DNA of 56,088 nucleotides, the filler included, from Sphacelaria rigidula (lineage: Eukaryota), in assembly GCA_964200075.2 (NCBI GenBank). It is 6 parts of 6 records of this genome, joined end to end, with 100 filler letters (N's around TTAATTAATTAA, not from the genome) between each part and the next. Parts side by side here need not be neighbours in the genome. Positions count along the whole stretch, not along the records: positions 9,366 to 18,630 come from CAXNAA020008886.1; 5 more parts are not named here. The stretch is one strand, 5' to 3'. Made by a program: the position numbers and the translations under genes. Position 1 is the stretch's first letter. Each line of letters begins with the position of its first letter. The notes beneath the pieces are model-generated. The model made no database searches, was not told the DNA's origin, and saw only the letters and a list, made by a program, of their open reading frames with translations. Shown here in pieces: positions 1,571 through 48,557 of the stretch.

Positions 1571-3316
1571 TCAACTCGCAGGCTCTTCTCTGTCCCAGCT
1601 TCTACTGACACTACGGCTACGACTCCCGCTTCGCTGAATAGAGTGAGATTGAAGACCGCGCCCGCCACGACGTGAAACTGCAGCGGCCCTACTCGTTGAA
1701 ATGCCGGTGCCTCCTTCATGCCTTCCATTGATGCTACTGCGACGGCTACCGCCGCCACCACCGCCGCTTCGATTGCTTGCCCCAATCACTCCCACCGCGT
1801 TCCCCTCCCTCCCTGTCCCATCGTCATCATCGTTGCCATCACCATCATCATCGTTGTCGTGTCCAACAGCAAACTCGGACTGCAAAGGCGAGTGCGCTAG
1901 CGGCGAACGTGCCGCGTGGCGTTTGCGGGTGCTCCATCCCTCCTGAGGAGGAGGAAGAGGGAGAGGAGGAGGCGGAAGAAGAGAATGAGCCGTGGCGTGG
2001 TGAGGGTGGTGGGGATAGTGAAACGGGTGATGATGGCCGCCTGTCCACGCCGGCAGCGAGCCAGCGGCGTAGTGGTGCGGCTCTGGGAAACCACCGCCGC
2101 CAATGTAACTCCCAGGAGGTCCGTAGCCTGCATGCACCACAGGCGGCGACGGCGACGGGTAAATAAAGCCACCCGGCGAATAGCTGCTGTAGTAGCTGCC
2201 AGCGGTGCTACCGCCACCGTCACCACTACGCACGTGACGGGCGCCGTCGCTGTGGCGACGCTGCTTGCTCCGACGTCGGGCTAGGCCACCTTCAGTCCTG
2301 CCTTCGCCCGGTCCTGCTCCTCGCTTTCCCCCATTCTCCTTCATGTCCCAGTTGCACCCTTCTTTATTCCGACCTCGCGTGTTGCGGCTCTCGCGATCGC
2401 GACCGCCGTCGTCACCGCGCGTGGCCGGAGTGTTCGCCAGTGCCAAGACCGCCTCCTGTGCGCCGTCTTTTGCCGCGCTCCCACCAACCGCGCTGCCTTG
2501 CCCACCCTTGTCCTCCGACACCAACCCTGGGGCAGCGAAACTATTATCGTCCTCCCAATCGCCACCACCTGCAGCACCGCCGCTCTCGCCGCCGCCAATT
2601 TTCCGCGAGGCACGAAGCGATGCCTCATTCGATGCTCCCCGTTCGTCATCCGATGACGTGTGGCCACCATGACTTGCCTCTGACCCGCTCGGGCGCCGAC
2701 GCCGTTGGAAGCGATGGTGATGCCCGTCCCACCCCGACTCGCGCCTCTCGTCGTCACTATGACCTCGTTTTGAAGAGTAGTCGAAGGGTGGCGGGTACGG
2801 GTTCGCGTAACCGCAGGCGGCGGCATTTCTCAACGCCGCGGCCACAGCCGCCGACACGGTTTCTTGCAAGTTTCGGGCCAAGGGAGCAGCAGCAGGGTCA
2901 AAGGGATTCGACCCGCCTCCATAGGGATGATGTTGACCGAAGGAACTTGGAGGGCAGGCGCTGGCTGACGAAGACGACGCGAAGGCCCTATGTTGTGCGC
3001 TATGACGTCGACGACGGCTACCGCCGCCACCACCTACACCGGAGCTCGAACAGTCATCACCCAATCGAGAGTGATCACGATAGCTTCTGTAGTCATCTTC
3101 GCCGGCCCCAGATTCCGGCGAAAACTCGCTCTCGCGAACATCGCGATCGTCGTGGTGACGGCTGCGGGAAAACGGGGGTGGAGTTGTTCCTCGTCCTTTT
3201 GAGGAACGACGCCCTCGGACATGCCTCCGGAGCTGTTGGTCCGCGTCCGTGCTGCTGCGGCCCCTCTTGAGGTGCGTCTTCATGCTCTGAATGTCCTGCT
3301 GCAGACCCTTTACCGT
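1571..3316 (-). CDS. Last coding exon of an uncharacterised low-complexity protein (short coiled coil, then Gly/Arg/Ser/His/Pro-rich region, RS-like C-terminus)
   Basis: Contains the 570-aa GC-rich ORF. Acceptor ctcaccag| at 3316 is in frame and phase 0, giving DIKQLWT|TVKGLQQDIQSMKTHL across the junction. TGA at 1571-1573. Confidence 0.75.
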   Translation of the reverse strand, partial: TVKGLQQDIQSMKTHLKRGRSSTDADQQLRRHVRGRRSSKGRGTTPPPFSRSRHHDDRDVRESEFSPESGAGEDDYRSYRDHSRLGDDCSSSGVGGGGGSRRRRHSAQHRAFASSSSASACPPSSFGQHHPYGGGSNPFDPAAAPLARNLQETVSAAVAAALRNAAACGYANPYPPPFDYSSKRGHSDDERRESGWDGHHHRFQRRRRPSGSEASHGGHTSSDDERGASNEASLRASRKIGGGESGGAAGGGDWEDDNSFAAPGLVSEDKGGQGSAVGGSAAKDGAQEAVLALANTPATRGDDGGRDRESRNTRGRNKEGCNWDMKENGGKRGAGPGEGRTEGGLARRRSKQRRHSDGARHVRSGDGGGSTAGSYYSSYSPGGFIYPSPSPPVVHAGYGPPGSYIGGGGFPEPHHYAAGSLPAWTGGHHHPFHYPHHPHHATAHSLLPPPPLPLPPPQEGWSTRKRHAARSPLAHSPLQSEFAVGHDNDDDGDGNDDDDGTGREGNAVGVIGASNRSGGGGGGSRRSSINGRHEGGTGISTSRAAAVSRRGGRGLQSHSIQRSGSRSRSVSRSWDREEPAS

Positions 3317-4133
3317 CTGGTGAGATGGCGTGAACCAGAGGCGCGGAAAAGTATGAGAACGGTAAACGTTTACACAAAAGTCATTTTGCGAAGAAAAATT
3401 TCACATGGATTACTTCGCGTCGTTCCTGTTAGTACCAGGTGGCAGGGAAAACCTAGTTCAGTAAAAACTGACACACCCCTGTGCTCTATTTGCCGATGTG
3501 CATGAAAAAACAGAAACAGGAGAGGTGAGTCAGAGGATAAAGCGCACACTCCGTAAGAAGCTATAATGTGTTTCATCATCGAAGTCAAGCGTTGATCAGG
3601 GTGTCGACTCTATTCCCCCCAACGCGAGCTGCTTTATTTGGGACATATTGTGACTTTGGAGAGTGGGGCGGTCTGGAGTGGCATCATGACGGAGGGAGGC
3701 ACTATCAGTGGAATGTCAGGGGAATGGGGGGGGGGGATGACCACCGGCAAGATATGCGGAAGATGTAAATGAGACTCAGCAGTAGTTGATCAACAATTTC
3801 ACAACATGTGAGAGGAAGACAGTAAATCTGATCGACGGAGACGCAATCGTCTACCTTTACCTTTGCACCCGGTAAAACAAAAGCAGGATGGTGTGTGCGC
3901 TCCACAAGAACATTACCAAACAGGCACAGCATCACTAGAAAGTATCGCATACTAGGTAAAGTCGTAGCGTGCGCAACATCGACGACGACGGGGGAAAACA
4001 AAACAGGACACTCGTCAATCTCAGCGGAACAGGTACGAAGTGACACTGTGTTCATCACGATATCGAGCACCCATCACAGAGCGCGCCCCAAATACCTTCC
4101 CCCTCTCGTCTCTGACCCATTGTGCTTGCTCAC

Positions 4134-5486
4134 CGTCCAGAGCTGCTTGATATCATTGGGCGTAGCCTCCAGAGCAGTAGTGCCAGTGCTGCCGCTTGCA
4201 AGCTCGCCCCCCTCTCCCGCCTCTGTCGCCGCGATGCTTGGCTCGGACGACTGCTCCGCCGCCCCCGCCGCAGCAAGTGTACGCATGAGAGCCTGGACCT
4301 GATTTGCCACAGCCGGAAGTGCCGCGGCGGCCACGCCGACGGGATCGGCGGGGGGTTTATCTAGAGCCAGGCTCGGCGTAGCTGCTGCCAAGGTCGCTGG
4401 TGGTGCTGAGACGGGCTCTGGGGCTTCTGAGATGGGGTTGCTGGTGGCAACACCACCATGCGCGGCGAGTGCGGTGGCGGCGGATACGATGTCGGTGGCG
4501 GAGATAGCGGAGCTCGTGGTTGGGATGCTCCTTGTGGAAATATCCGCGGACGAAGGAGAAGCGCTGGTACTGGTATGTGCTGCCTCCTCCGTATCGTTTT
4601 GTCCCTCAGCTTCTTGCCCACCGGCCGACACCTGCTTGCTTCCCGCGTTCAGAGTTGGCATACGGAGAAGGGAAATGCCGTCGATAACGCCACCAACATG
4701 CGCAGTGGATGCTGTGAAGGCGGCGGGGCCCGTGGTTGGCGTACTCGCCGTGAATATGTCTGCGGGGGCAGCAGCAGCGCTGGTGTTGGTGTGCGCGAAC
4801 TTCTCTGAGTCGTGCCGCCTTACAGCTTCTTGCTGACTGTCCGACCCCTGCTTGTTTTCAGCGTTGCAATTTGGCGCACGGTGAGGGGAGATGCTGGCGG
4901 CAACATTACCACCATGGGCGGCGGAGCTGGCGAAGCTCGTGGTTAGGGTGCTTGTCACGGAAATGACCGCGGACGCAGCAGCAGTGCCGCTGTTGGTGGC
5001 CTTCCCCGTATCGTTTTGTCCCGCCGCTTCTTCTTTACTGTCCCGCCCCTGCTTGCTTCCAGCGTTGTGCTTTGGCGCAGAGAAAGGAGAGGCGCCACCG
5101 ACAACGGTACCACCATGCGCGGCAGGTGCGGTCGCGGCGGCGGAACTGGCTGAGGTCGTGGTTGGGATGCCTGTGGTGGATGTGTCTCCAGATGCAGTAG
5201 CAGCGCTGATATTATTGTGTACTGCCTCCTCCGTATCATTTTGTCCCGCCGTTTCTTGTTCGTTGTCCGAGCCCTTTTTGCTTTCTGCATTGAGAGTTGG
5301 CGAGCAGGGGGTGGACATGCTACCGGCAGCGCCACCACCATGCGTGGTTGTTGCGGTCGCGGCGATCGGGCTCGTGGATTGGATGCTTGCTGCAGAAATG
5401 TCCGGGGACGCAGCAGCAGCGCTGGTACTGGTGTGTGCTGCATCGGTTTCTCCTTGTCCTACCGTTTCTTGCTCGCCGTCCGACCC
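4134..5486 (-). CDS. Internal exon (451 codons) with five ~70-aa Ala/Ser/Thr-rich repeats
   Basis: Lies within the 523-aa ORF; acceptor aaaaacaagcag| at 5486, donor ACG|gtgagc at 4134; phase 0-0. Confidence 0.7.
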
Positions 5487-5510
5487 CTGCTTGTTTTTCG
5501 CATTGATACA
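4440..5510 (-). repeat. Five coding tandem repeats of 201-225 bp
   Basis: Units start at 5486, 5273, 5048, 4847 and 4631 (spacings 213/225/201/216); consensus NA(E/G)(S/N)KQGSDxxQExxGQNDTxxAAHT. Confidence 0.85.
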
Positions 5511-5852
5511 TGGAGCAAAGGGAGGGAGACGAACGAAGGCACACCTTAATTCATGCCTCCAGTCGGGATTATCGCGAGACAGAGACTGGGTGCGGCGGAG
5601 CGGGGGACTAATGGGTTTGAGCATGATACGCATACCCAAGGGCAATCAGATAGCACGTGAGCGCCAAAGTCGATGGCAAATACTACAAGCACGAAAATGA
5701 AGCAATAACCGCGGAGAGCCCCCGGGGGGGGTTGGCGACAACGTCCATCGTAAGAAATATAGTACCACAACTACATATTGAGCGACCAAGGGTTGTTTTG
5801 TGAGAGATGTGCTTACAACAGCACCACAGACACAAAGCCCAATTTCACTCAC

Positions 5853-8690: not shown

Positions 8691-8700
8691 NNNNNNNNNN
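8691..8700. other. Intra-scaffold assembly gap (10 N)
   Basis: Ten N bases without the linker motif. Confidence 0.95.
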
Positions 8701-9265: not shown

Positions 9266-9365
9266 NNNNNNNNNNNNNNNNNNNNNNNNNNNNNNNNNNN
9301 NNNNNNNNNTTAATTAATTAANNNNNNNNNNNNNNNNNNNNNNNNNNNNNNNNNNNNNNNNNNNN
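9266..9365. other. Artificial scaffold linker (N44-TTAATTAATTAA-N44)
   Basis: 100-nt spacer with a six-frame-stop palindrome at 9310-9321; identical to four other linkers. Confidence 0.98.
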
Positions 9366-9434
9366 AAGGTGGTCTGACACACTTATGAGCCTCTTTTTTC
9401 GTGCAACCAAATACCCCCCCCCTTATCGTAGGAT
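9366..9434 (-). mobile_element. Transposon-like terminal sequence (CATCCTACGATA-G7-TATTTGGTTGCACG...) at the scaffold start
   Basis: Reverse complement matches 18518-18625 at the other end of the same scaffold. Confidence 0.65.
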
Positions 9435-12400
9435 GACTCATGTACATGCTATCGTGCAGCCAATATATATCTTGGACGCGCTCGCGGAGGAATACATTGG
9501 ACGTTTTGGGCATCTAGTTATACATTATTCAACGGCGCCTGCGGACATGAAACTGCCCACAATACTAATACCTACACACTTTCAAATGTCTAATTTGACT
9601 CATCAATATATATATATATATTGCTACACCGATCTATGTTGTGACGGTTGGTCCTTTCGTGTATCGTTCGCCTAATATATATTGGACGCATTGACGCACG
9701 ACATATTGGGGCGGCGATATGTATTGGCGCTTCGAGTGTTGAATATTGAATCGTCGATGTATATTGACCTCGTGCGACAGCCAATATATGATTAGATGAA
9801 TTTATATTGCCGCCTTACCGCACCACATAGTACTCGGCCAAAATACAATGGGATGGCGCGTGCCGTGATATATTTTTCGGTCCATACATATTGCATGTCG
9901 CGCCTTGACATATCGATGACACTATATATATATATATATATTGACTTACCTCGCGTGTCACCATATTGCTCGCCCGATATATTTGACCACCCGACGCGTC
10001 GACATATTGAGCGGGCAATATATATTACATACTTTATTGTACAGAGTGCAGAAGTTTCTCGTGTAGTATCCGTCTTTGGCGCTTAAAAGTCGTGAGGTCG
10101 ATAGATACTGGGAAGAAGTAGGTCGTGCTCAGAACATCCTGCTCGACTCATGTGTTCGGGATAATGCGGAATAAGTTCTCCTTGGTCACCAGGGGGTATT
10201 ATCGACCGTCACTAGTCCGAAAAGCACATTTGATAGCTCTAGCGCAATAAACAGGACAAAAAAATTAAATCAATCCTCTTTAATTGTTCGTGAAAACGAT
10301 TGGAATGGCTTCAATCGAGCAAAAGTACTCAGGGGTAAGAACCTGGGGCTGGGTAATCTGAGGACTCCCGCTTCCCAGTCACCCCGTATATTGTTCAATA
10401 ATGAGCATACATGTGTGTTTTTTTCGAAATGTAACGGGAATGATGAGTACCCCCCAATCACCAAACTTTGAGACCAAATATTTGCTAAGATCGGTGGTGG
10501 TACGTGAAAACACACTGTTCAACCCCCTATTACGAAAAAACCACGATAATGTGTTACTTCAGATGTTGACTACTGTAATCATGTAGGCGTGGAAAGGGGG
10601 GTAAGTTAGTTGCGATCCTGTTAGCCGTCACGTGTGCGCATCCCCAGGTGCAACAAATAAAAGCGAAGACGAAAAATTGGAAGGATGCGTTCGCCATAGC
10701 ATCATTGCACCAAGGCGTACAGACAACACCAACTGGAACCGAGAACAGCGAAAACCATTTGCAAAATATCGACGTTGCCTTGCTCACCACACCACACCGA
10801 ACATGACATCAGACTCTTCTACTTTCACCACACGTCATCACGTCCTGCAGTTTCGTACGGTCTCTAAACCGAGCCGGAAAACGATTCCTCGAAAGCGGAC
10901 AAAAGGCTATTGCGCTCAAACGATGTTATCGTGGGACTGAGGGTAGAGCGTTGATTTAGATTGGGCTTCATCACTCGCTTCAACTTGACCATTTTTTCAT
11001 TCTCTGGGTGCTTTTCCTTGCCTGCAACACTGGCGTGTGCTTGCAGCTACACGTCGATATCCTACTCGGGGATATCAAAAGCTGCAGTGGCAAGCTACTG
11101 CAGGAACCGTATCGGGCCTCGCGGAGGGACACTTGGGAACTGAAACTACTCATTTATTAGTTGACCGCTTCTCACTCTCAATCCTCTCCTCTCCATCACA
11201 AGAGAACACTGTTTTAACGAGGTGCAAGCCAAAAGATCCACCTCGTCGCCAGCTATTTCTCCTTGCACGTTTGCGGTTTTCTTCACGCATTTGTTTTCCT
11301 CTTCACTCGATGCTTGAATACTCTTCGCTGAGACCCGTGGTTACACTCGAGGACAAGAGACGCGCACCCATCATTGAACAACCGCGTTCGGATCCGCTCC
11401 TTCTGATTCAAAACCATCCGTCTGAATGCGTGTTTCCGGTGATTGATTCAGACGTTGCTACAGCATTTTCCATGGGACCTTTTAGAGAGAGGGAAATAAC
11501 GTCGACGAATGAGGATTGCCCCCAACAGATGCTTTTCGCCCCTATTGGGTTGAGGGAAATGACTGCTATCGGAAAAATCGAAGTTTGTCGACCCAGGGGA
11601 TCACAAGAACGCCACCATCAAGCATGGTGCGGCCAGCTGTGCAGACTGAACACATATGAAGATACGGTAGGTCACGTCGAGAACAGACAGCACAGTGTAC
11701 GATGCAGCAACGTTGCATTGCAGCCCGTGCCGCTGTGTGACTGTGTATCCAGTGCCCAGTGCCCACATAGTTGTTGAGTATGTACATGGGGCACAACGGC
11801 AGCAGCATACTGCAGGGTACGTGCAGTGCTGCCGTGCAGACAGGGCAGTGTCGTACATAGCTGCGGACAACGGACAGTACAGCGGCCGCTGTTTCGCACA
11901 CCAAGTTGTCAATTTCAAGTATCACGATGGTCGGGCGTACGCGCCAATTCATTTTCGGAGGTGTACAAAACGGTTTCAAAAACTGCTGTTCTTGGAAAAG
12001 TGTCACTAGCCGATCTTTTGCTTAGTCTTCGCATCAAAGAAAGCGGGCTCAACAACAAGGTTCTTGAAGAAAATATACATTACTCCAAGAAATCGAACAA
12101 TTTGCACATTGGGCAACACATGGTACAGCTGCCGCGGATTTGTTATGGTGAGTTCATTGTGAGGCACCGTTATTCAACGGTGTTTGCACTGTCGCAGCAT
12201 GGTATTACGTGGTACGCGTAATCTGTTTCACGATACGGCGCGATACGGCAACAAAAATTCGCGATACGGTTTTAATGGTGATCGTGTGAGATTTGCATAT
12301 TTGTGCGTGAACCAAGGAAACGTTTATTATACCGCGGAAGACATCCCGGGCAAAGAAAGCTTCGCTTGGTTCGTATTATCTTGCTTGCACTTTCACTTCA

Positions 12401-14189
12401 AGGCTCACTTCAGCCATCGGCCCAGTACTTGAAGCATCATTATTTTTGCACCGTAGAATCTGTTTTGACGGTCTGTGCCATTTGTGTCATCACGTCGGGT
12501 TTTGCGTGTTTCTGCGGCTGTTTCTGGAGGTCCGTCTTCCCGCGTACATTTGTTCTCCACCTGTTGTTCACGCCTCTCCCTCCTTTCTCAAGGTAACAGC
12601 TTTCGTGTGCGTGCCCCCAAAGCAGCTCGAATCATCATATTATAATGTCGGTTGTTACTCGTGAATTGGCAAGGATCGCTTCGTTCTCGATATTTTACGA
12701 CATACCTCCTTCTTCAGCACACCCGTTTCGTCTCACTCTATGGGAGTCTCAACAACGGCGAAATACTGTTGAATTCGTTATTTTCTTGCAACGGATTACA
12801 TCTACCACGGCGTGTTTCTGCACTGGCAACTCTGCGCACTCATCTTCGAGACGCGTTTCATTGCCCTGAGCGTCACTCCAGCTGTACCCCAGTAATGGGA
12901 GGCACCGATAGGCTGCATTTTAACGATGTGTGATACTGACGGAGCTCCGCCTCTAAACAATTACAGCACGCTATGGTATTGTCATCCGAAGCGACGAAGA
13001 CGCGAGCAGGTCGTTCGTGCCTTTCATATGCACACAAAAACCTGCCCCCTCCAGAGCAGAGTGAGGTGCCGATAACACCAAGCCCTGTGCTTCTGAACTG
13101 CATCGCGCGGGAATTGGACGCACGGACTACAGCTATTCGGGTCCCTGGAGATCCACACCTCCGCACGTTCACCGCATGGCCCGTCGATTACCCCTGTCTC
13201 GTGTCACGCCAATGGCTTGTGCCGCAGGATGTCGGTTGGTGAGAGTATGTGCAAGAGTGCTTGTTGCTATATCGACGTGACGCATCAGAGTGTTTCCAAG
13301 CCCAACAATCCGCGAGCTGCCTTGCTTCCATTCGATCCTGTGAATGAGTTTCAGGTATCGATGGTTATACCCTCCAGGCAAGGGGGGCATGAACGGATTA
13401 ACACCGTTTTCTGAGAGGGGTGTATTTCTACGACCCTCCCTAGTTCGTAGGTGTGTCTTGTTCCAGCAGGTGGTGACAGGGGCGACTGATGTAGGCGCAG
13501 CTGGCGACCATCATGCCGCCTGGCTAGTGCCGTATGGCGTGTGCATTGGTATGCACAATCGCCCTGCCGAAGGCCACCGCCGCCACACCTACCGTACAGC
13601 ACCCTTTGCGTACTCACACAGGATAAGGTGGTGTCTCCCAACTGCGTATGGCAGTGACACTATCTACGATAGCCCCCCCAAGAAAAGTGCATGGTTTTGG
13701 GCGGCAATATCTTCACGTAAATTGAAATGGGAAACGCAGAGCACAACGAGAAGCTGGGGATTCCCACGCCTGGGTTCGTTCTAGCCAATGTCGCCATTAT
13801 GAGGCGCTTCATGCAGCCTGGACCCGAACATCAGGCGTTGTATGTCCACTTTTTTCGTGGCACTTTTATCTGGTTTGTGTGTGTGGGGGGCATCGTAGAA
13901 AGTGTTCAGTACGCTGGAAACGTGATGGATCGGCATGTGCTGCCCCCCTCCACATCACCATCCGCCGGGTGCAGGCTTTCGGCATCAATAGTTTATTTGC
14001 TGAGGAATATCACTCACATGAACTCATGGCCTGTTACACCCCCGATTCGAAGTGCACAAAACCGAATGATCGCATGCCCGTCGTGTGTCACGAAAATCGG
14101 ATGGGTAGAGAAACCATACTAGCGACTTCGACCCTGTAGATTTCTGTGCATCTTCGGGCTTCGACACCCCTCTCTTTGACACGGGATTT

Positions 14190-14534
14190 TACAATTTGAG
14201 GATGGATCTGTTTTGGGGGATAAGAAACCCGGAGAATTCAAATCTTCGTATGCACACCAGATCTTCGGAATATGGTTCCATTTTCTAGGTGAAAAACTAA
14301 TTTTGGGGAGTTTCGGGTGTCCGAACAGACGCCAAAATGGTTGCGGAGTTGGTTTTTCACCTACAACCCTAATTTTTTGGTGATCGAGATCCAAATCTGT
14401 ATGGCATGTGGCAGTTGTCAAAAGCTATCAGTAGGTGAAGAAAAGGAACCACATTTCGAATATTTGGTGTGGATACGAAGATTTTAATTCTCCGGGTTTC
14501 TCATCCCCCAAAAACGATCCATCCCCAATTTGTA
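14190..14534. mobile_element. Fold-back/MITE element, family shared with 39966-40466
   Basis: tacaatttgaggatggatc...gatccatccccaatttgta with ~90-bp imperfect inverted arms; internal sequence matches the scaffold-5 copy. Confidence 0.75.
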
Positions 14535-14901
14535 TGATGCCGTATTCTATTCTTGAGCCGTGCCGCCACGCTGCGAGAACACGTACAGAGACAGATAGTA
14601 CGCTTCTTGTCAACACCGCCCCATGTAATGGCACTGCTGCAGCAGTTCTCTCTTCGTCGCCTGCTAACTCCACGCCTGATGTGTCACTTCACTCTGGCCC
14701 ACGTGCCCATATACGACAGAGATATAATGACGACGGTTCACTTAACCTTCACATGGGCACGGCCTCACATTACTTTTCCTGGTTGATTGATGCAGGTTTT
14801 TGCTGGACTGGTCAACCGATCTGCGTTACGGAGTTTGTGGCAGTACGGATCGCAGCAGCAGAAGCACCAGCGAGACTACCGAGGCTTTGTATCTTCTCTA
14901 G

Positions 14902-17553
14902 TGCAGTCGTGGAGGGGACACCTGCTTGTGCACCCACACGAGTTGCACCACGAGAGCATTTTATGGCATAGCGTGTAGCAGGAAAGCGGAGTTCTGCGCC
15001 GCACACGCCCGAGCGAGCATGGTCGATGTCACGAACAAGCGGTGCAGCAAGGAGGGCTGCTCCACAACACCATCGTTCGGTGCAGCCGGTAGCAGGAAAG
15101 CGGAGGTCTGCGCCGCCCACGCTCGAGCAGGCATGGTCAACGTGAGGAGCAAACGGTGCAGGCAGGAGGGCTGCTCCACATACCCATCATTCGGTGCAGC
15201 CGGTAGCAGGAAGGCGGAGTTCTGCGCCGCACACGCCCCGGCTGGCATGGGCAACGTAACAAACAAGCACTGTGGCGAGGATGACTGCTCCACTACACCA
15301 TCGTTCGGTGTAGCCGGTAGCAGGAAAGCGGTGTTCTGCGCCGCACACGCCCGAGCGGGCATGGTCGATGTGAGGAGCAAGCAGTGCAGCGAGGAGGGCT
15401 GCTCAACATACCCATCGTTCGGTGCAGCCGTTAGCAGGAAGGCGGAGTTCTGCGCCGCACACGCCCGAGCGGGCATGGTCAATGTGACGAGTAAGCGGTG
15501 CGGCAAGGATGGCTGCTCCGCAAAAGCATCGTTGGGCGCAGCCGGTAGCAGGAATGCGGAGTTCTGCGCTGCACATGCCCGAGCGGGCATGGTTAATGTG
15601 ACGAGCAAGCGGTGCGGCAAGGAGGGCTGCTCCACAATCCCATCGTACGGTGCAGCCAGTAGCGGGAAGGCGGAGTTCTGCACCGCACACGCCCGCGTGG
15701 GCATGATCAACGTGAGGAGCGAGCGGTGCAGCAAGCAGGGCTGCTCCACAAGACCATCGTTCGGTGCAGCCGGTAGCAAGAAGGCGGGGTTCTGCGCCGC
15801 CCACGCTCGAGCGGGCATGGTCAATGTGAGGAGCGAGCGGTGCGGCAAGGAAGGCTGCTCCGTAAGGCCGTCGTTCGGCGCAGCCGGTAGCAGAAAGGCA
15901 GAGTTCTGTGCGACACACGCCCCAGCGGGCATGGTGAATGTGACGAGCAAGCGGTGCAGCGAGGAGGGCTGCTCCAAACACCCATCGTTCGGTGCAGCCA
16001 GTACCAGGAAGGCGGAATTCTGCGCTGTACACGCCCGAGCGGGCATGGTCAATGTGAGGAGCAAGCGGTGTAGTGAGGAGGGCTGCTCCACAATATCAAT
16101 GTTCGGCGCAGCCGGTAACAGGAAGGCGAATTTCTGCGCCGCACACGCCCGAGCGGGCATAGTCGATGTGGTAGGCAAGCGGTGCGGCAAGCAGGGCTGT
16201 TCTGCTACAGCATCGTTCGGCGCAGCCGGTAGCAAGAAGGCGGAGTTCTGCGCCGCCCACGCCCGAGCGGGCATGGTCAATGTGAGGAGCGAGCGGTGCG
16301 GCAAGGAGGGCTGCTCCGTAAAACCGTCGTTCGGCGCAGCCGGTAGCAGAAAGGCAGAGTTCTGTGCGACACACGCCCCAGCTGGCATAGTCGATGTGGT
16401 AAGCAAGGGGTGCGGCAAGCAGGGCTGCTCTGCTACAGCATCGTTCGGCGCAGCCGGTAGAAGGAATGCGGAGTTCTGCGCTAGACACGCTCGAGCAGGT
16501 GTGGTTCACGTGAGAAACGAGCAACGCGGCAAGGATGGCCACCTGAACCAATTGTTGGTCGGTGCCGGAGCTGGCAGCAAGGTTGAGTTTTGCGCCGCAC
16601 ACGCCCGAGCGGGCACGGTCGACGTGGCACGAAGACGGTGTGGGAAGGAGAGCTGCTCCGCAATACCGTCGTTCAGTGCAGCCGGTTGCAAGAAAGCGAG
16701 TTTCTGCCCCCCACACGCCCGTCCAGGCGTGGTCGATGTGGTACGACGGTGGTGCGGCAAAGAGAGCTACTTAACCCGACGTTCACCCGGTGTAGTCGGT
16801 GGCAGGCATGCGGAGTTCTGCGCCTCACACGCCAGCGCAGGGATAGCCTTCATCAACGGCGATGAATGCGCCTCGCTGCATCATTCTAACCTGGTTCGGG
16901 AGGACGCAAATATCTACCATCATGCTTCATGTGGCTTGGTCATAGGATCTGATCCCAGAGGACATTTCCGGGAAAAAAACCCAGCGAGTGACGGCTTGGT
17001 CGCGGGAGAGACTGGCGTCGGTATCGATGATGGAGGTAAAAACTCTAGCTATCCACCGAATGGCGGCCCCAATACAAATCATCGTGGTCGTGACGCTGAG
17101 TCTCGTCCCAGCTCGGGTGTCATCCGTATTAGGCGACGGGATCCAAATTCCACGACCACGTCGCCTTCCCCCTCGAAACAGCTCCCCGGCGCGGTGGCAG
17201 CAGATGAGGTTACTTTAGGTGGGTCAGAGATGCGCATGAAAATCAAAATGGAAACGACAGTCGCGCCTGCGCGAGTTTTCGAGGGGATACAAACTAGCAA
17301 ACTAGTTACTACGCGATCCAGCAGCTGCGGCATCATAAGCGGCTCCAGCAGGACTGCCAGAAGCAGTAGCATCACCGATGGAAGGAACACGAAGCGGCTT
17401 CGCCGGACGACCCAGGTGCTGCCGGTACTTGATGTGGCAGCCGGGGATGATGTGTTGTCTGAAGACAAGAAAACCGACGTGAAGTTAGAACTGAACGTGC
17501 CCGCCCAGTCTCGTCACGTGTCCGCGGCCTCATCCTGCCTGCGAAAGAGTTAG
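14902..17553 (+). CDS. EsV-1-7 cysteine-rich repeat protein (17 x 38-aa C-x4-C-x16-C-x2-H repeats plus ~230-aa disordered tail)
   Basis: 875-aa uninterrupted ORF with consensus KRCxxEGCSxxPSFGAAGSRKAEFCAAHARAGMVNVxx, recognised as the EsV-1-7 motif (Ectocarpus virus EsV-1 ORF7; brown algal IMMEDIATE UPRIGHT family). The 5' end is uncertain: in-frame TAG at 14899-14901 doubles as a pyrimidine-rich acceptor (ctttgtatcttctctag), and the first in-frame ATG is at 15019. Confidence 0.9.
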   Translation, partial: CSRGGDTCLCTHTSCTTRAFYGIACSRKAEFCAAHARASMVDVTNKRCSKEGCSTTPSFGAAGSRKAEVCAAHARAGMVNVRSKRCRQEGCSTYPSFGAAGSRKAEFCAAHAPAGMGNVTNKHCGEDDCSTTPSFGVAGSRKAVFCAAHARAGMVDVRSKQCSEEGCSTYPSFGAAVSRKAEFCAAHARAGMVNVTSKRCGKDGCSAKASLGAAGSRNAEFCAAHARAGMVNVTSKRCGKEGCSTIPSYGAASSGKAEFCTAHARVGMINVRSERCSKQGCSTRPSFGAAGSKKAGFCAAHARAGMVNVRSERCGKEGCSVRPSFGAAGSRKAEFCATHAPAGMVNVTSKRCSEEGCSKHPSFGAASTRKAEFCAVHARAGMVNVRSKRCSEEGCSTISMFGAAGNRKANFCAAHARAGIVDVVGKRCGKQGCSATASFGAAGSKKAEFCAAHARAGMVNVRSERCGKEGCSVKPSFGAAGSRKAEFCATHAPAGIVDVVSKGCGKQGCSATASFGAAGRRNAEFCARHARAGVVHVRNEQRGKDGHLNQLLVGAGAGSKVEFCAAHARAGTVDVARRRCGKESCSAIPSFSAAGCKKASFCPPHARPGVVDVVRRWCGKESYLTRRSPGVVGGRHAEFCASHASAGIAFINGDECASLHHSNLVREDANIYHHASCGLVIGSDPRGHFREKNPASDGLVAGETGVGIDDGGKNSSYPPNGGPNTNHRGRDAESRPSSGVIRIRRRDPNSTTTSPSPSKQLPGAVAADEVTLGGSEMRMKIKMETTVAPARVFEGIQTSKLVTTRSSSCGIISGSSRTARSSSITDGRNTKRLRRTTQVLPVLDVAAGDDVLSEDKKTDVKLELNVPAQSRHVSAASSCLRKS
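14923..16860 (+). repeat. 114-bp coding tandem repeat array, 17 units
   Basis: Exact 114-nt register with no indels (unit 2 at 15037, unit 17 at 16747); units 15 and 17 have lost Cys ligands. Confidence 0.95.
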
Positions 17554-18063
17554 ATTGAGTGGAGGACCCGTGCAAGCCTTTTCCTCGGCTGATGTTCGAC
17601 AAAGCTTCGTTTCACCATGTGTGGTCGAACCTTGCGAAAAAGCTTCGTTTCACGTCGTGATTTCGCTCGAATCTTGCTATGCATATTAGTTTCTTTGTTT
17701 TCAAGTCAAATAGTGCAGCTATGTTCAGTCAGTGGCTGGGGAGGCGGATGCCACTGAGCCGTTCTTTTCGATGTGTGGTGGCGGATTGTCTCCAGCAATG
17801 GTTCCCGAAGCATGAAGAATCTTCAATCTGCATCTTCTCCTGGTTATCTTACTACTTTCGGCTCGTCACCGCGCAGGAAGGTGCATTTGTAGCCATGTAC
17901 CGCACCGCCACGTTCCGGTGATGCAACTGGTTCATGCAGAATCGATGACGGCGAATAGTTTCGGCTTGAAATCCTGGTGGATACGTTTTCTTATATGTAT
18001 GTTAATGCCGTCTTCGAAAACGTGAGGGCATGAGTATCGTGAGCTATTTGACGACAGCCGACA

Positions 18064-18180
18064 GGGTGCGGGAGTACTGATCTCATCGGCGATACCGAAG
18101 TATTAGGCATGCACCACGGGAAAGATGGGTTGATCCCTCGAGACTACGAAGCCGTCCCAAGGTACGGGATGGGTTGATAG
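18064..18180 (+). repeat. Dispersed repeat, also at 29951-30080 (+) and 31290-31410 (-)
   Basis: Shared ggtgcgggagt...gggaa(g)agatgg(g/a)ttgat(c/t)cctc(g/a)agac motifs. Confidence 0.6.
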
Positions 18181-18517
18181 TGGAATGAAAAAATGCCCAG
18201 CCAGTGCGCTGCTCGTGTACCCATTGTTTTCCTCTCGATACACGGGATGGGATATTCGTACCTAGCGGCAAGAATGCACAGCTGTAAGGTACATCCCCAT
18301 AAGGTAGCACGAAGCTTCGAACTGCTTGGGAATTTCGACACGAGATGGTCACGTACAGCGTAGTAGCACGACGCACATGCATCATGTTGAACGATAACGC
18401 GCAGCATATTTATGGTTGAGGATGTGCGACACCCGTGCCCGCCTGTAAGCCTTGCACCTGCGGGATTATCAAGGTTGTGAGTGTCATTCGACCATTGGGT
18501 TTGGAATGACTTGCGAG

Positions 18518-18630
18518 GCATCCTACGATAGGGGGGGGTATTTGGTTGCACGAAGTAGTATTTGGTTGCACGAAGTAGTATTTGGTTGCACGAAAAACGA
18601 GGCTCGTAAGTGTGTCAGACATCCTTCCAC
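18518..18630 (+). mobile_element. Transposon-like terminal sequence with an internal 3 x 20-bp tandem (gtatttggttgcacgaagta) at the scaffold end
   Basis: Inverted copy of 9366-9434. Confidence 0.65.
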
Positions 18631-18730
18631 NNNNNNNNNNNNNNNNNNNNNNNNNNNNNNNNNNNNNNNNNNNNTTAATTAATTAANNNNNNNNNNNNNN
18701 NNNNNNNNNNNNNNNNNNNNNNNNNNNNNN
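18631..18730. other. Artificial scaffold linker
   Basis: N44-TTAATTAATTAA-N44. Confidence 0.98.
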
Positions 18731-27995: not shown

Positions 27996-28095
27996 NNNNN
28001 NNNNNNNNNNNNNNNNNNNNNNNNNNNNNNNNNNNNNNNTTAATTAATTAANNNNNNNNNNNNNNNNNNNNNNNNNNNNNNNNNNNNNNNNNNNN
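27996..28095. other. Artificial scaffold linker
   Basis: N44-TTAATTAATTAA-N44. Confidence 0.98.
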
Positions 28096-37360: not shown

Positions 37361-37460
37361 NNNNNNNNNNNNNNNNNNNNNNNNNNNNNNNNNNNNNNNN
37401 NNNNTTAATTAATTAANNNNNNNNNNNNNNNNNNNNNNNNNNNNNNNNNNNNNNNNNNNN
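37361..37460. other. Artificial scaffold linker
   Basis: N44-TTAATTAATTAA-N44. Confidence 0.98.
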
Positions 37461-46724: not shown

Positions 46725-46824
46725 NNNNNNNNNNNNNNNNNNNNNNNNNNNNNNNNNNNNNNNNNNNNTTAATTAATTAANNNNNNNNNNNNNNNNNNNN
46801 NNNNNNNNNNNNNNNNNNNNNNNN
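46725..46824. other. Artificial scaffold linker
   Basis: N44-TTAATTAATTAA-N44. Confidence 0.98.
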
Positions 46825-48557
46825 GAAGTCGGTGTTCGGTGGCGTAAGGTGTCGCCACTGGGGCGGGTACGGCGGGGGTCGGGGAGCGACACGTTTGACC
46901 GCGTTGCTCGTGCCCCCGTCGGGGAGTACCTTTCGCTTGACGGCTGTCTTGGGGGCGGGCTGCGCGGGTGAGCCTGCTACCGCGAGCCCGGGGTTTTGGC
47001 GACCGATGAGGCTGCTGGGGTGGCCGTCGGCGGTGAGCGTTTTTACACGGGTGAACGATGGCACCGGCGCCGCGGGGCCCTGCCCGTTGGCGGGTGGGGC
47101 GGCAGGAGACTCCATGCGTAGGTTCAATCCCGCGTCCCTGCATTCTGTGAGCCACCCGTTGATGTCGTGGTTAAAGTCAGTGATTATGCGGGTTTTGACG
47201 GCCGCCTCGTCTCTGTGTAGAGAGGCGTAATTTTTCCCCGTGTACGCGTCCAGCGCCGACGCCATCCTCGTCAGTTCTCCTGTGATGAAGGCTCGCCTAT
47301 CCCGCCCGCCGCCGTTGTCGGTGGTGCCGAAGTTGATGATGGTCAGCGCCTTGGTGAATGTTGTGACATGGGCCTCAGCGCGAAAGTAGTTTTTTTTTAT
47401 GCCAGGCGGCACCGGGGAGTGGAAGTTGGTGACGTCTACGTCGGTCAACGTCTGGAGATTGCTCAGCATGCCCCGGTTGGTGTCGGCCACGTCGCGGAGT
47501 TTTAGTTTCAAGTTTGCGTCAGACATGGGAATGGAAATGGAGACCCCGCCCCTGAGGATGTGGAAGAGTGCCTTGTTTTCGTCCGAGAGCCAGCTGTTGA
47601 TCTCCCGCTTCTCCTGCATTTCTTCGGCCTTCTTCGTACTGGCGGGGGCGGCGTTGGCCGCTCCCATTGCATGCATGAGTTGTTGGATCTGACCCCCTCC
47701 CCCGCCACTGAGAAGTTGAAGGAGTTGGTGGATCGGGGATTGCGGCTGTGCTTGGTGGTATTGCTGTGGTTGCTGTTGATGGAGTTGTTGTACGTGGTGC
47801 TGGTCCGGCTGCGGTTGCTGTTGTTGCTGCGGCGGCTGCGGTTGTTGGTGTTGGTGCTGCGGTTGTTGGTGCTGCTCGTGCTGCTGAGGTTGATGCTGTT
47901 GCTGCTGCTGTTGCGGTTGATGATGATGATGTGGCTGCGCCTGTTGGAGTTGGTGATGCGGTAGTGGCCCTCCGATGGGTGGCGGCAGTGGGGCGCTAGG
48001 GCAAGCGGGGAGGCCCCATTTACTCTTCCCCCCGCCATGTGCTGTTGCTGTGCGGCGCCCGCCGGCTGCTGGCCGACCAGGCCTTGGACGGCCCCGCCTT
48101 GCTGTTGTGGTTGTCCGTACTGGAGAAGATGTACCTGCTGTTGAAGGTTCGAGATTGTCTGGCTCTGTTGCTGCTGTCGGTGGAGGCTTTGCTGGTGTTG
48201 TTGTTCCATGTTGATGTTTGTTTTCGCCTGTGCCTGCAGGATTTGAGCTAGAATGTCTGATGGCTCGCTTGGGCTTGGTGGGGGTCCGAGTAGCGGTGGG
48301 GGAGGTGCAGGTGCGTCAGTATCCAGCTGGCCTGCACTACCTTGCGGGCGGGCATGCCGGTTGACGGAGATCGGGTTGCTGTGCGTGCCTCCGGCTGGTG
48401 GTGCCGAGGCTCGGCGTGGTTCCCTTCCTGCGGTCCTTCCCTCTTTTGCTCCTACCGTTGCTCGAGCTCCTGATGTGCTGTGGGGGTGTTGGCCTTAGCT
48501 TTGCGAAGCTGCTCCTCCCGCTGCTGCTGTTGCTCCCGATGTTGATGTGTTGTCCAT
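46825..48557 (-). pseudogene. Decayed intronless ORF (Gln/His/Pro-rich N-half, globular C-half), possibly a retroelement ORF1/gag; truncated by the scaffold end
   Basis: ATG at 48557 is in frame with the 47508-48209 ORF apart from one TAA (48495-48497). A 1-nt frameshift in a C run near 47990 joins it to the 46777-47676 ORF. Confidence 0.55.

Follow-up and report, generated by a model that had tools for sequence, protein, structure and literature searches.

Can the single repeats of a tandem EsV-1-7 array be told apart by a few fixed residues, and could such an array read nucleic acid module by module? This question is raised by a gene of the brown alga Sphacelaria rigidula that lies in the window analyzed here, a stretch of 56,088 nucleotides, filler included, composed of six joined parts of assembly GCA_964200075.2 (positions 9,366 to 18,630 derive from record CAXNAA020008886.1). 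Its open reading frame (ORF) encodes 17 consecutive Cys3His units of 38 amino acids, and a sequence-only reading of the window had proposed that residues 10 and 11 of each unit form a variable pair comparable to that of transcription activator-like effectors (TALEs). The core of that proposal survives in a modified form: fixed positions individualize each repeat of a basic zinc scaffold, and this has family-wide support. The TALE analogy fails because of the fold, the spread of the variability, and the supposed 10–11 pair itself.

The EsV-1-7 family is described, in the accessible parts of the published accounts, as comprising 2018 proteins in 31 brown-alga genomes, as the largest orthogroup, and as one of the largest gene-family expansions. 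The same partial texts name the developmental regulator IMMEDIATE UPRIGHT (IMM) as a member, call the molecular function unknown, and call the family absent from land plants. The accounts examined report no ligand in the text available, in agreement with the earlier statement that none has been demonstrated, and a literature search over similarly partial texts returned no paper that suggests either classes of variable sites or a ligand of the EsV-1-7 repeat.

The ORF and the units of its array are located in the window as follows.

14902..17553, plus strand: ORF of 883 codons plus stop codon (17551-17553), identified by its match to PF19114 (E value, 1.2e-212)
14923..16860, plus strand: array of 17 units of 114 nt (38 amino acids) with zero indels, from 114-nt stepping and Tandem Repeats Finder
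14923..15036, plus strand: unit 1, divergent (62-70% DNA identity to the core units), four ligands intact
15037..16518, plus strand: core units 2-14, thirteen intact Cys3His modules with 71-92% mutual DNA identity
16519..16632, plus strand: unit 15, degenerate, with C3 replaced by R and C8 by H
16633..16746, plus strand: unit 16, ligands intact, sequence divergent
16747..16860, plus strand: unit 17, degenerate, with Y in place of C8; its counterpart in the alignment is the last repeat of the S. rigidula protein P0004, which is equally degenerate

The membership of this gene in the EsV-1-7 family is certain. PF19114 (EsV_1_7_cys) matched it in 17 stretches with 687.8 bits against a cut-off of 25, and the gene is a previously unreported member of an already known family. 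Tandem Repeats Finder reported one array (14975-16833; period 114, 16.3 copies, 78% matches), and no second EsV-1-7 array was found elsewhere in the window. The ligand pattern C-x4-C-x16-C-x2-H was present in 15 of the 17 units; C25, H28, and A29 occurred in all 17, C3 in 16, and C8 in 15. The invariance of the four ligands suggests that the array binds zinc. The end units (1, 15, 16, and 17) shared 52-76% DNA identity with the core units, and the decay of unit 17 is ancestral, because the last repeat of P0004, aligned with it, is equally degenerate. With its 17 units, the array exceeded the best 150 cluster representatives of the family (at most 13 matched stretches each), and it was unusually uniform, with a mean unit-to-unit difference of 0.335 against a family median of 0.52.

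The descriptive part of the sequence-only reading was accurate. The 17 gap-free units were exact on 114-nt stepping from 14923, the near-invariant scaffold was recovered, the array was strongly basic (net charge, +56; pI, 9.6), and the residues listed for positions 10 and 11 (TR, TT, TY, TT, TY, AK, TI, TR, VR, KH, TI, AT, VK, AT, NQ, AI, and TR) were correct throughout. The flanking codons of the core were conserved even at silent sites (tgc in 12/13 units, tcc in 10/13, tcg in 11/13, and ttc in 11/13). Codon 11 was represented by 10 distinct codons in the 17 units, and 78 of 136 pairs differed in it at two or three bases. Across core units 2-14, codon 11 was the most variable, followed by codons 37 and 10, and the second variable patch claimed at positions 35, 37, and 38 was also present.

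The evidence that individualizing positions exist came from the family. Canonical repeats were extracted from the fetched relatives, and 37 arrays with a mean between-repeat difference of at most 0.40 were treated as uniform. Compared between proteins, about a dozen sites were saturated (entropy above 3.2 bits), and position 11 was only one of them. Within the 37 uniform arrays, the between-repeat difference was highest at sites 38 (0.72), 11 (0.71), 13 (0.59), 37 (0.57), and 35 (0.56), whereas sites 9, 16, and 17, free to vary from one protein to another, differed at only 0.27-0.34. Across the family, K, T, or R is the usual residue at position 10; this position differed at 0.28 and was among the top three sites in one of the 37 arrays, so that the proposed variable pair is not supported.

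The same five sites were conserved when corresponding repeats of related proteins were compared. A first sample comprised seven related pairs and 32 aligned repeats, among which 4 differed at site 11 and 1 at site 35. The class of five sites (11, 13, 35, 37, and 38) had been defined beforehand on non-overlapping proteins, and in a replication with five new pairs of clear correspondence (23 repeats) the differences numbered 0 at site 35, 1 at site 37, 2 at sites 38 and 13, and 4 at site 11; sites 4, 9, 16, and 31 differed in 10-12 of the 23. The five-site class thus differed in 9/115 cells and other equally repeat-variable sites in 114/345 (Fisher P 2e-8). Over all ten clear pairs, the counts were 27/235 against 173/611 (Fisher P 8e-8); among their 47 aligned repeats, site 35, which carries an N/D choice, changed once, and site 11 changed in 5 against 12.7 expected. 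These P values are too small, because the cells are non-independent and the filter was chosen after the first sample, and the direction of the five-site conservation is consistent across the pair sets.

Coupling between sites separated the same groups. According to mutual information, neighboring repeats share residues at positions 29, 15, 23, 30, 16, 5, 19, 6, 4, 27, 31, 9, and 17 and barely share site 11 (z 2.1). Site 11 was also uncoupled from sites 35, 37, and 38, with z never above 1.6; a coupling was seen between sites 35 and 38. The family therefore has two classes of variable site, array-wide variable sites that drift and repeat-identity sites 11, 13, 35, 37, and 38, and the sequence-only claim that a few fixed positions distinguish the repeats is upheld for this second class. 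A modular recognition surface would be expected to produce repeat-identity sites, and so would packing or protein contacts specific to each module.

That the array binds nucleic acid, DNA or another kind, through module-specific contacts is the mechanism we consider most likely, with a confidence that stays somewhat short of even. Each 38-residue unit would fold independently around a single zinc ion, with C3 and C8 supplied by a knuckle and C25 and H28 by a short helix. Short linkers would join the units, and the array would behave as beads on a string rather than as a rigid solenoid. Many weak basic modules could then bind a long polyanionic ligand, which would more probably be DNA than RNA. 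Each module might owe its specificity to a few fixed side chains, namely position 11 after the knuckle, the strand-linker patch 35/37/38, and position 13 in other members of the family. The working mode would be that of C2H2 arrays and not a one-repeat-one-base TALE cipher. We infer both the specificity of the modules and the binding of DNA, the latter from the net charge of +56 and from the fusions found in the family (a transposase, viral proteins named endonuclease or primase, and a conserved viral C-terminal domain).

Structure prediction was compatible with small separate modules. A six-repeat model reached a mean predicted local distance difference test score (pLDDT) of 82.1 with a predicted template modeling score (pTM) of 0.39, and a two-repeat model reached 91.7 and 0.57; the modules are therefore predicted with confidence and their mutual arrangement is not. 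DSSP gave each unit short strands around residues 14-16, 24, and 33-35, and residues 26-28 formed a short helix of three residues bearing the last two ligands. The superhelix of repeats once envisaged did not appear with confidence in these models, in which the units were small zinc knots of strands and a short helix. Among 23 structural neighbors in BFVD at E ≤ 1e-3, the best for the two-repeat model was the EsV-1-7 protein of Ectocarpus virus 1 (Q8QNQ2; E value, 5.9e-9; TMq, 0.79; 55% identity), with predicted structures on both sides of the comparison.

The names of those neighbors (four Endonuclease and one DNA primase) supply part of the case for DNA. An Ectocarpus Tc1/mariner transposase, TcMar-2_Ec32, is described in the accessible part of its source as having gained an N-terminal EsV-1-7 domain (PMC12477816). 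A degenerate motif pattern applied to viral contigs gave 15 loci, of which two were read (L008 and L014), and a scan of the viral contigs with the window protein itself found no relative. The giant-virus ORF of locus L014 (4850-7087, plus strand) has 14 repeats of 37 amino acids, with site 11 again among the most variable sites, followed by a conserved C-terminal domain of about 190 amino acids with an invariant P-D...E-x-D-E-x-x-H...R-x-N-P-D pattern; 23 of the 61 members of this domain family carry EsV-1-7 repeats. The ESM Atlas offered leads only for this domain, an automatically named 'Endonuclease (Fragment)' cluster (0.92) and a DUF559 cluster (0.86).

The nearest relatives of the window protein were all brown-alga members of the family (47-62% identity), the nearest sequences being from S. 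rigidula, and 38 residues was the commonest spacing in the relatives (149 of the successive repeat pairs counted). Precomputed Pfam annotations list extra matches in relatives P0034, P0061, P0079, P0217, P0226, and P0243 (ETF, rhomboid, reverse transcriptase, PF14205, PF10967/PF03457, and PF14223), which may reflect either genuine fusions or the merging of gene models. The Pfam model PF24906, named 'WRKY19 zinc finger domain', also matches EsV-1-7 arrays: locus L008 (11449-12762, plus strand) scored 78.7 bits with no single passing stretch, further matches fell on P0008, P0010, and P0234, and 2 of the 79 members of the family alignment A1 were matched. The zinc finger of land-plant WRKY19 may be related to the EsV-1-7 repeat, although the family is described as absent from land plants.

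Module-specific DNA binding has to be weighed against the view that there is no code at all. In this view, position 11 and the linker patch belong to loops of a generic basic zinc repeat, are less constrained than any other residues there, and drift neutrally after unit duplication; the degenerate end units would have escaped homogenization, as is usual at array edges. Such a repeat may bind nucleic acid or chromatin non-specifically. All rate tests compared pairs of extant repeats. The ratio of the non-synonymous to the synonymous proportion of differences (pN/pS) between units was 0.59 for all 17 and 0.48 for the core, and the repeats are therefore under purifying selection. Position 11 had both the highest entropy (2.63 bits, seven residue types) and the highest non-synonymous difference of the unit. 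Across all pairs of the 13 core units, site 11 changed at 1.96 times the synonymous rate of the array; five of the six nearest core pairs differed at it, and sites 11 and 37 together gave 11.3 non-synonymous differences against 5.7 expected (P 0.014-0.031). Site 11 evolves at, or somewhat above, the neutral rate, and diversifying selection is no more than suggested.

A number of results weigh against module-specific recognition, and several of them are what drift would produce. In six independent pairs of core units, the excess was not significant at site 11 (6.0 against 3.0 expected, P 0.08) or at site 37 (about twice the synonymous rate, P 0.06). With all 17 units, eight independent nearest pairs gave 5.0 non-synonymous differences at site 11 against 4.9 expected at the synonymous rate, and sites 10, 11, and 37 pooled had a pN of 0.242 and a pS of 0.263; the viral array of L014 changed at about neutral rates. 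An above-neutral rate at site 11, on which the sequence-only reading depends, is therefore neither clearly present nor clearly absent: relative to the synonymous rate it is about 2.0 in the core, without significance, and about 1.0 when all units are included. The conservation test has its own weak points. The filter for clear correspondence was picked after the first sample had been seen, and the strong result depends on it: over 20 matched pairs unfiltered, the five-site class differed in 150/440 cells and the others in 461/1144 (Fisher P 0.025), site 11 gave a null result (37/88 repeats against 40.5 expected, P 0.26), and several pairs had no repeat-level correspondence at all. The window array itself had no repeat-by-repeat correspondence with any relative (excess identity at most 0.08), so that the conservation test does not apply to this gene. 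No second Pfam domain was found in the ten close relatives with the largest non-repeat parts. The C-terminal domain of L014 had no meaningful match in Pfam, PHROG, or NCBIfam and no PDB sequence match by single sequence or profile, and the resemblance of its P-D...E-x-D-E-x-x-H motif to Vsr/DUF559 does not establish a nuclease.

The no-code view also draws on the dozen or so sites that are saturated family-wide, on the many sites that differ at 0.6-0.8 when 145 arrays are taken together, and on the repeat number, which is labile, since P0004 has about seven repeats against 17 here and shares its tail. It is hard to reconcile with the repeat-identity sites, which change 2.5 to 4 times less at corresponding repeats than other equally repeat-variable sites, and with an N/D choice that lies one transition apart and was nevertheless kept in 46 of 47 aligned repeats. 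We regard it as rather unlikely.

The array may instead be a protein-protein scaffold, which we judge just as unlikely and which is, with the no-code view, one of the two main rivals; in such a scaffold, tandem zinc modules work as in LIM or B-box proteins and the identity sites make partner or inter-module packing contacts rather than base contacts. Part of its support comes from the fold searches. A PDB sequence search with five repeats gave no hit at E ≤ 10, Foldseek gave no PDB hit at E ≤ 1e-3 for the six- and two-repeat models (best E value, 1.2-2.1), and the ESM Atlas, with PF19114 excluded, gave no usable match; the weak top Foldseek rows were the nsp13 zinc-binding domain, LIM, and B-box, which are protein-binding zinc modules. 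Conserved repeat-specific residues are expected equally of protein contacts, and the co-variation of sites 35 and 38 within a repeat is what packing residues might show. The Ectocarpus EsV-1-7 genes are, in the part of the source available, described as having no other Pfam domain, which fits a scaffold as well.

A further alternative keeps nucleic acid and changes its kind: each module would recognize one or a few bases of single-stranded RNA, as PPR, PUF, or CCCH proteins do. Such a reader would be in keeping with the Cys3His ligands, with the basic charge, and with the choice between N and D at a repeat-specific site that is conserved; the PPR code makes use of N/D choices. The fusions seen are DNA-acting (a transposase, endonuclease names, and a primase name), and the array had no Pfam match to CCCH or other RNA-binding families; an RNA reader seems distinctly improbable.

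A strict TALE-like cipher, in which positions 10 and 11 would be the repeat-variable di-residue and each repeat would contact one base along a superhelix, is very improbable. The exact unit length, the variability of position 11, the conserved flanking codons, and the rank of position 10 as third most variable in the core had made it attractive. It conflicts with the behavior of position 10 in the uniform arrays, with the absence of confident inter-repeat geometry, and with modules that are not helical repeats; the top two variable sites carry only 12.1% of the between-repeat differences in the window array (median of other arrays, 9.6%).

With module-specific nucleic-acid binding retained as the preferred mechanism, the gene model of the window ORF can be considered. 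The following features flank the array.

14887..14901, plus strand: candidate 3' splice site, a pyrimidine tract with terminal AG, from sequence reading
16861..17550, plus strand: non-repeat tail of 230 amino acids, Ser-rich, pI 9.3, from composition and alignment to P0004
17131..17139, plus strand: basic cluster RRR in the tail, from sequence reading
17392..17406, plus strand: basic cluster KRLRR in the tail, its flanking GRNTK-LRRT stretch common to P0004

Within its EsV-1-7 family gene, the ORF probably represents the last or the main exon. No ATG was found between the frame opening at 14902 and position 33 of unit 1, and the AG of the candidate acceptor is part of the TAG that terminates the upstream frame. 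The array exon is probably not the first exon, because the frame lacks an opening ATG and the pyrimidine tract with its AG stands exactly at the frame opening. Runs X1 and X2 are RNA only by conjecture; their contigs matched pieces between 15050 and 18371 with 0-1 differing letters, and contigs of run X7 covered all 30 bins. No clean contig joint into the 5' end of the frame was found, and joints within the array resembled repeat collapse. Unit 17 and the tail shared 45% identity over 271 amino acids with the tail of P0004 (E value, 2e-50). The Pfam scan of the ORF found no domain in the tail, which is of low complexity, and its RRR cluster might act like a nuclear localization signal. That the gene is decaying or non-functional, left over from a viral insert or from tandem expansion in the recent past and no longer translated, is highly improbable, since the missing ATG, the 2 of 17 units without full zinc ligands, and the high-copy repeats just upstream stand against 883 open codons, the pN/pS of 0.48-0.59, the splice-acceptor-like site exactly at the frame opening, and a tail and degenerate last unit conserved with P0004.

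Long open frames also run antisense across the array (14961-16505 and 15403-16770, minus strand; up to 514 codons) and are most simply a by-product of GC-rich periodic repeat composition. In four runs, contig depth rose into the thousands at 10935-11241, 13698-14004, and 14312-14618, with adjoining bins near zero to tens; these stretches upstream of the gene look like high-copy dispersed repeats and are probably transposon fragments. The ORF translations of 14119-14421 (minus strand) and 14435-14700 (plus strand) share a similar peptide, ..NHI.. IWC.YED.NSPGF.SPK.DPS.., which suggests an inverted duplication centered near 14428, just upstream of the array. Further long open frames lie in GC-richer stretches at 1571-3400 (minus strand, 609 codons), 4074-5645 (minus strand, 523 codons), and 46777-48315 (minus strand, 512 codons). 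Among eight neighboring long ORFs scanned with Pfam, no family was found except a weak TFIIA-like low-complexity match in 46777-48315. Runs of N occur at 8691-8700 and as paired 44-base runs near 9266-9365, 18631-18730, 27996-28095, 37361-37460, and 46725-46824, about 9365 bases apart, a regular spacing that looks like masking rather than assembly gaps.

The conserved repeat-identity positions and the repeated attachment to DNA-acting enzymes turn an 'unknown cysteine-rich repeat' into a testable hypothesis that specifies residues for mutation and proteins for binding assays. In its widest form, the hypothesis would make EsV-1-7 arrays a previously unrecognized class of modular DNA readers that use sites 11, 13, and 35/37/38, including an Asn/Asp switch at 35, with about 2000 of them serving as developmental regulators of brown algae and with giant viruses and a transposon using arrays to aim nucleases, a primase, and a transposase; as a whole, this seems to us unlikely. 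If true, it would provide a natural modular DNA-binding scaffold alongside zinc fingers and TALEs and would explain the recruitment of a virus-shared domain into brown-alga development, and viral or transposon fusions with knowable insertion sites would permit a recognition code to be derived. If it fails, protein interaction or a structural role becomes the likelier function of the EsV-1-7 repeat.

Compared with known zinc domains, one partial likeness was followed up and rejected. Positions 1-40 of the 75 in the Pfam SBP model (PF03110) align to one repeat from its first Cys (26.5 bits with the whole ORF as query, 30.3 bits with six repeats), and the model matched 10 of 79 family members (best E value, 1.8e-9). 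In the accessible parts of the sources, the full SBP domain has about 76 amino acids with Zn-1, Zn-2, and a bipartite nuclear localization signal (NLS), Zn-1 is canonically C3H (PMC10796333), and the C-terminal zinc site is the one required for DNA binding (bioRxiv 2024.09.13.612952). Only the first half aligns; the window repeats lack both the second zinc site and the half of SBP that contains the NLS. No single stretch passed, the score being summed over repeats, and no SBP structure was among the Foldseek matches, so that this likeness is weak.

Within its own family, the window array has the same repeat, ligand spacing, and 38-residue period, and no other Pfam domain. IMM is described in the part of the source available as a unique amino-terminal domain followed by five repeats; the window exon carries 17 repeats with no N-terminal segment outside them. 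Unlike the array-nuclease fusions suggested for giant viruses, the window ORF has no nuclease or other enzymatic domain and carries a basic low-complexity tail instead.

Like TALE, PPR, and PUF proteins, the array is built of tandem units of exact length, is degenerate in its end repeats, and varies at specific positions, but its repeats are not helical solenoids. Its identity sites, unlike the TALE pair, are non-adjacent, and site 11 is uncoupled from the 35/37/38 patch. C2H2 arrays, by analogy of working mode only, appear closer: self-folding zinc modules, short linkers, a few module-specific positions conserved between relatives, and a model confidence that is high locally and low globally. 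The window units differ from C2H2 fingers in their Cys3His ligands with C-x4-C-x16-C-x2-H spacing, in a length of 38 residues against about 28, and in having neither the beta-beta-alpha finger nor a C2H2 Pfam match. Taken together, the EsV-1-7 array of S. rigidula would resemble a C2H2 finger array more than a TALE.

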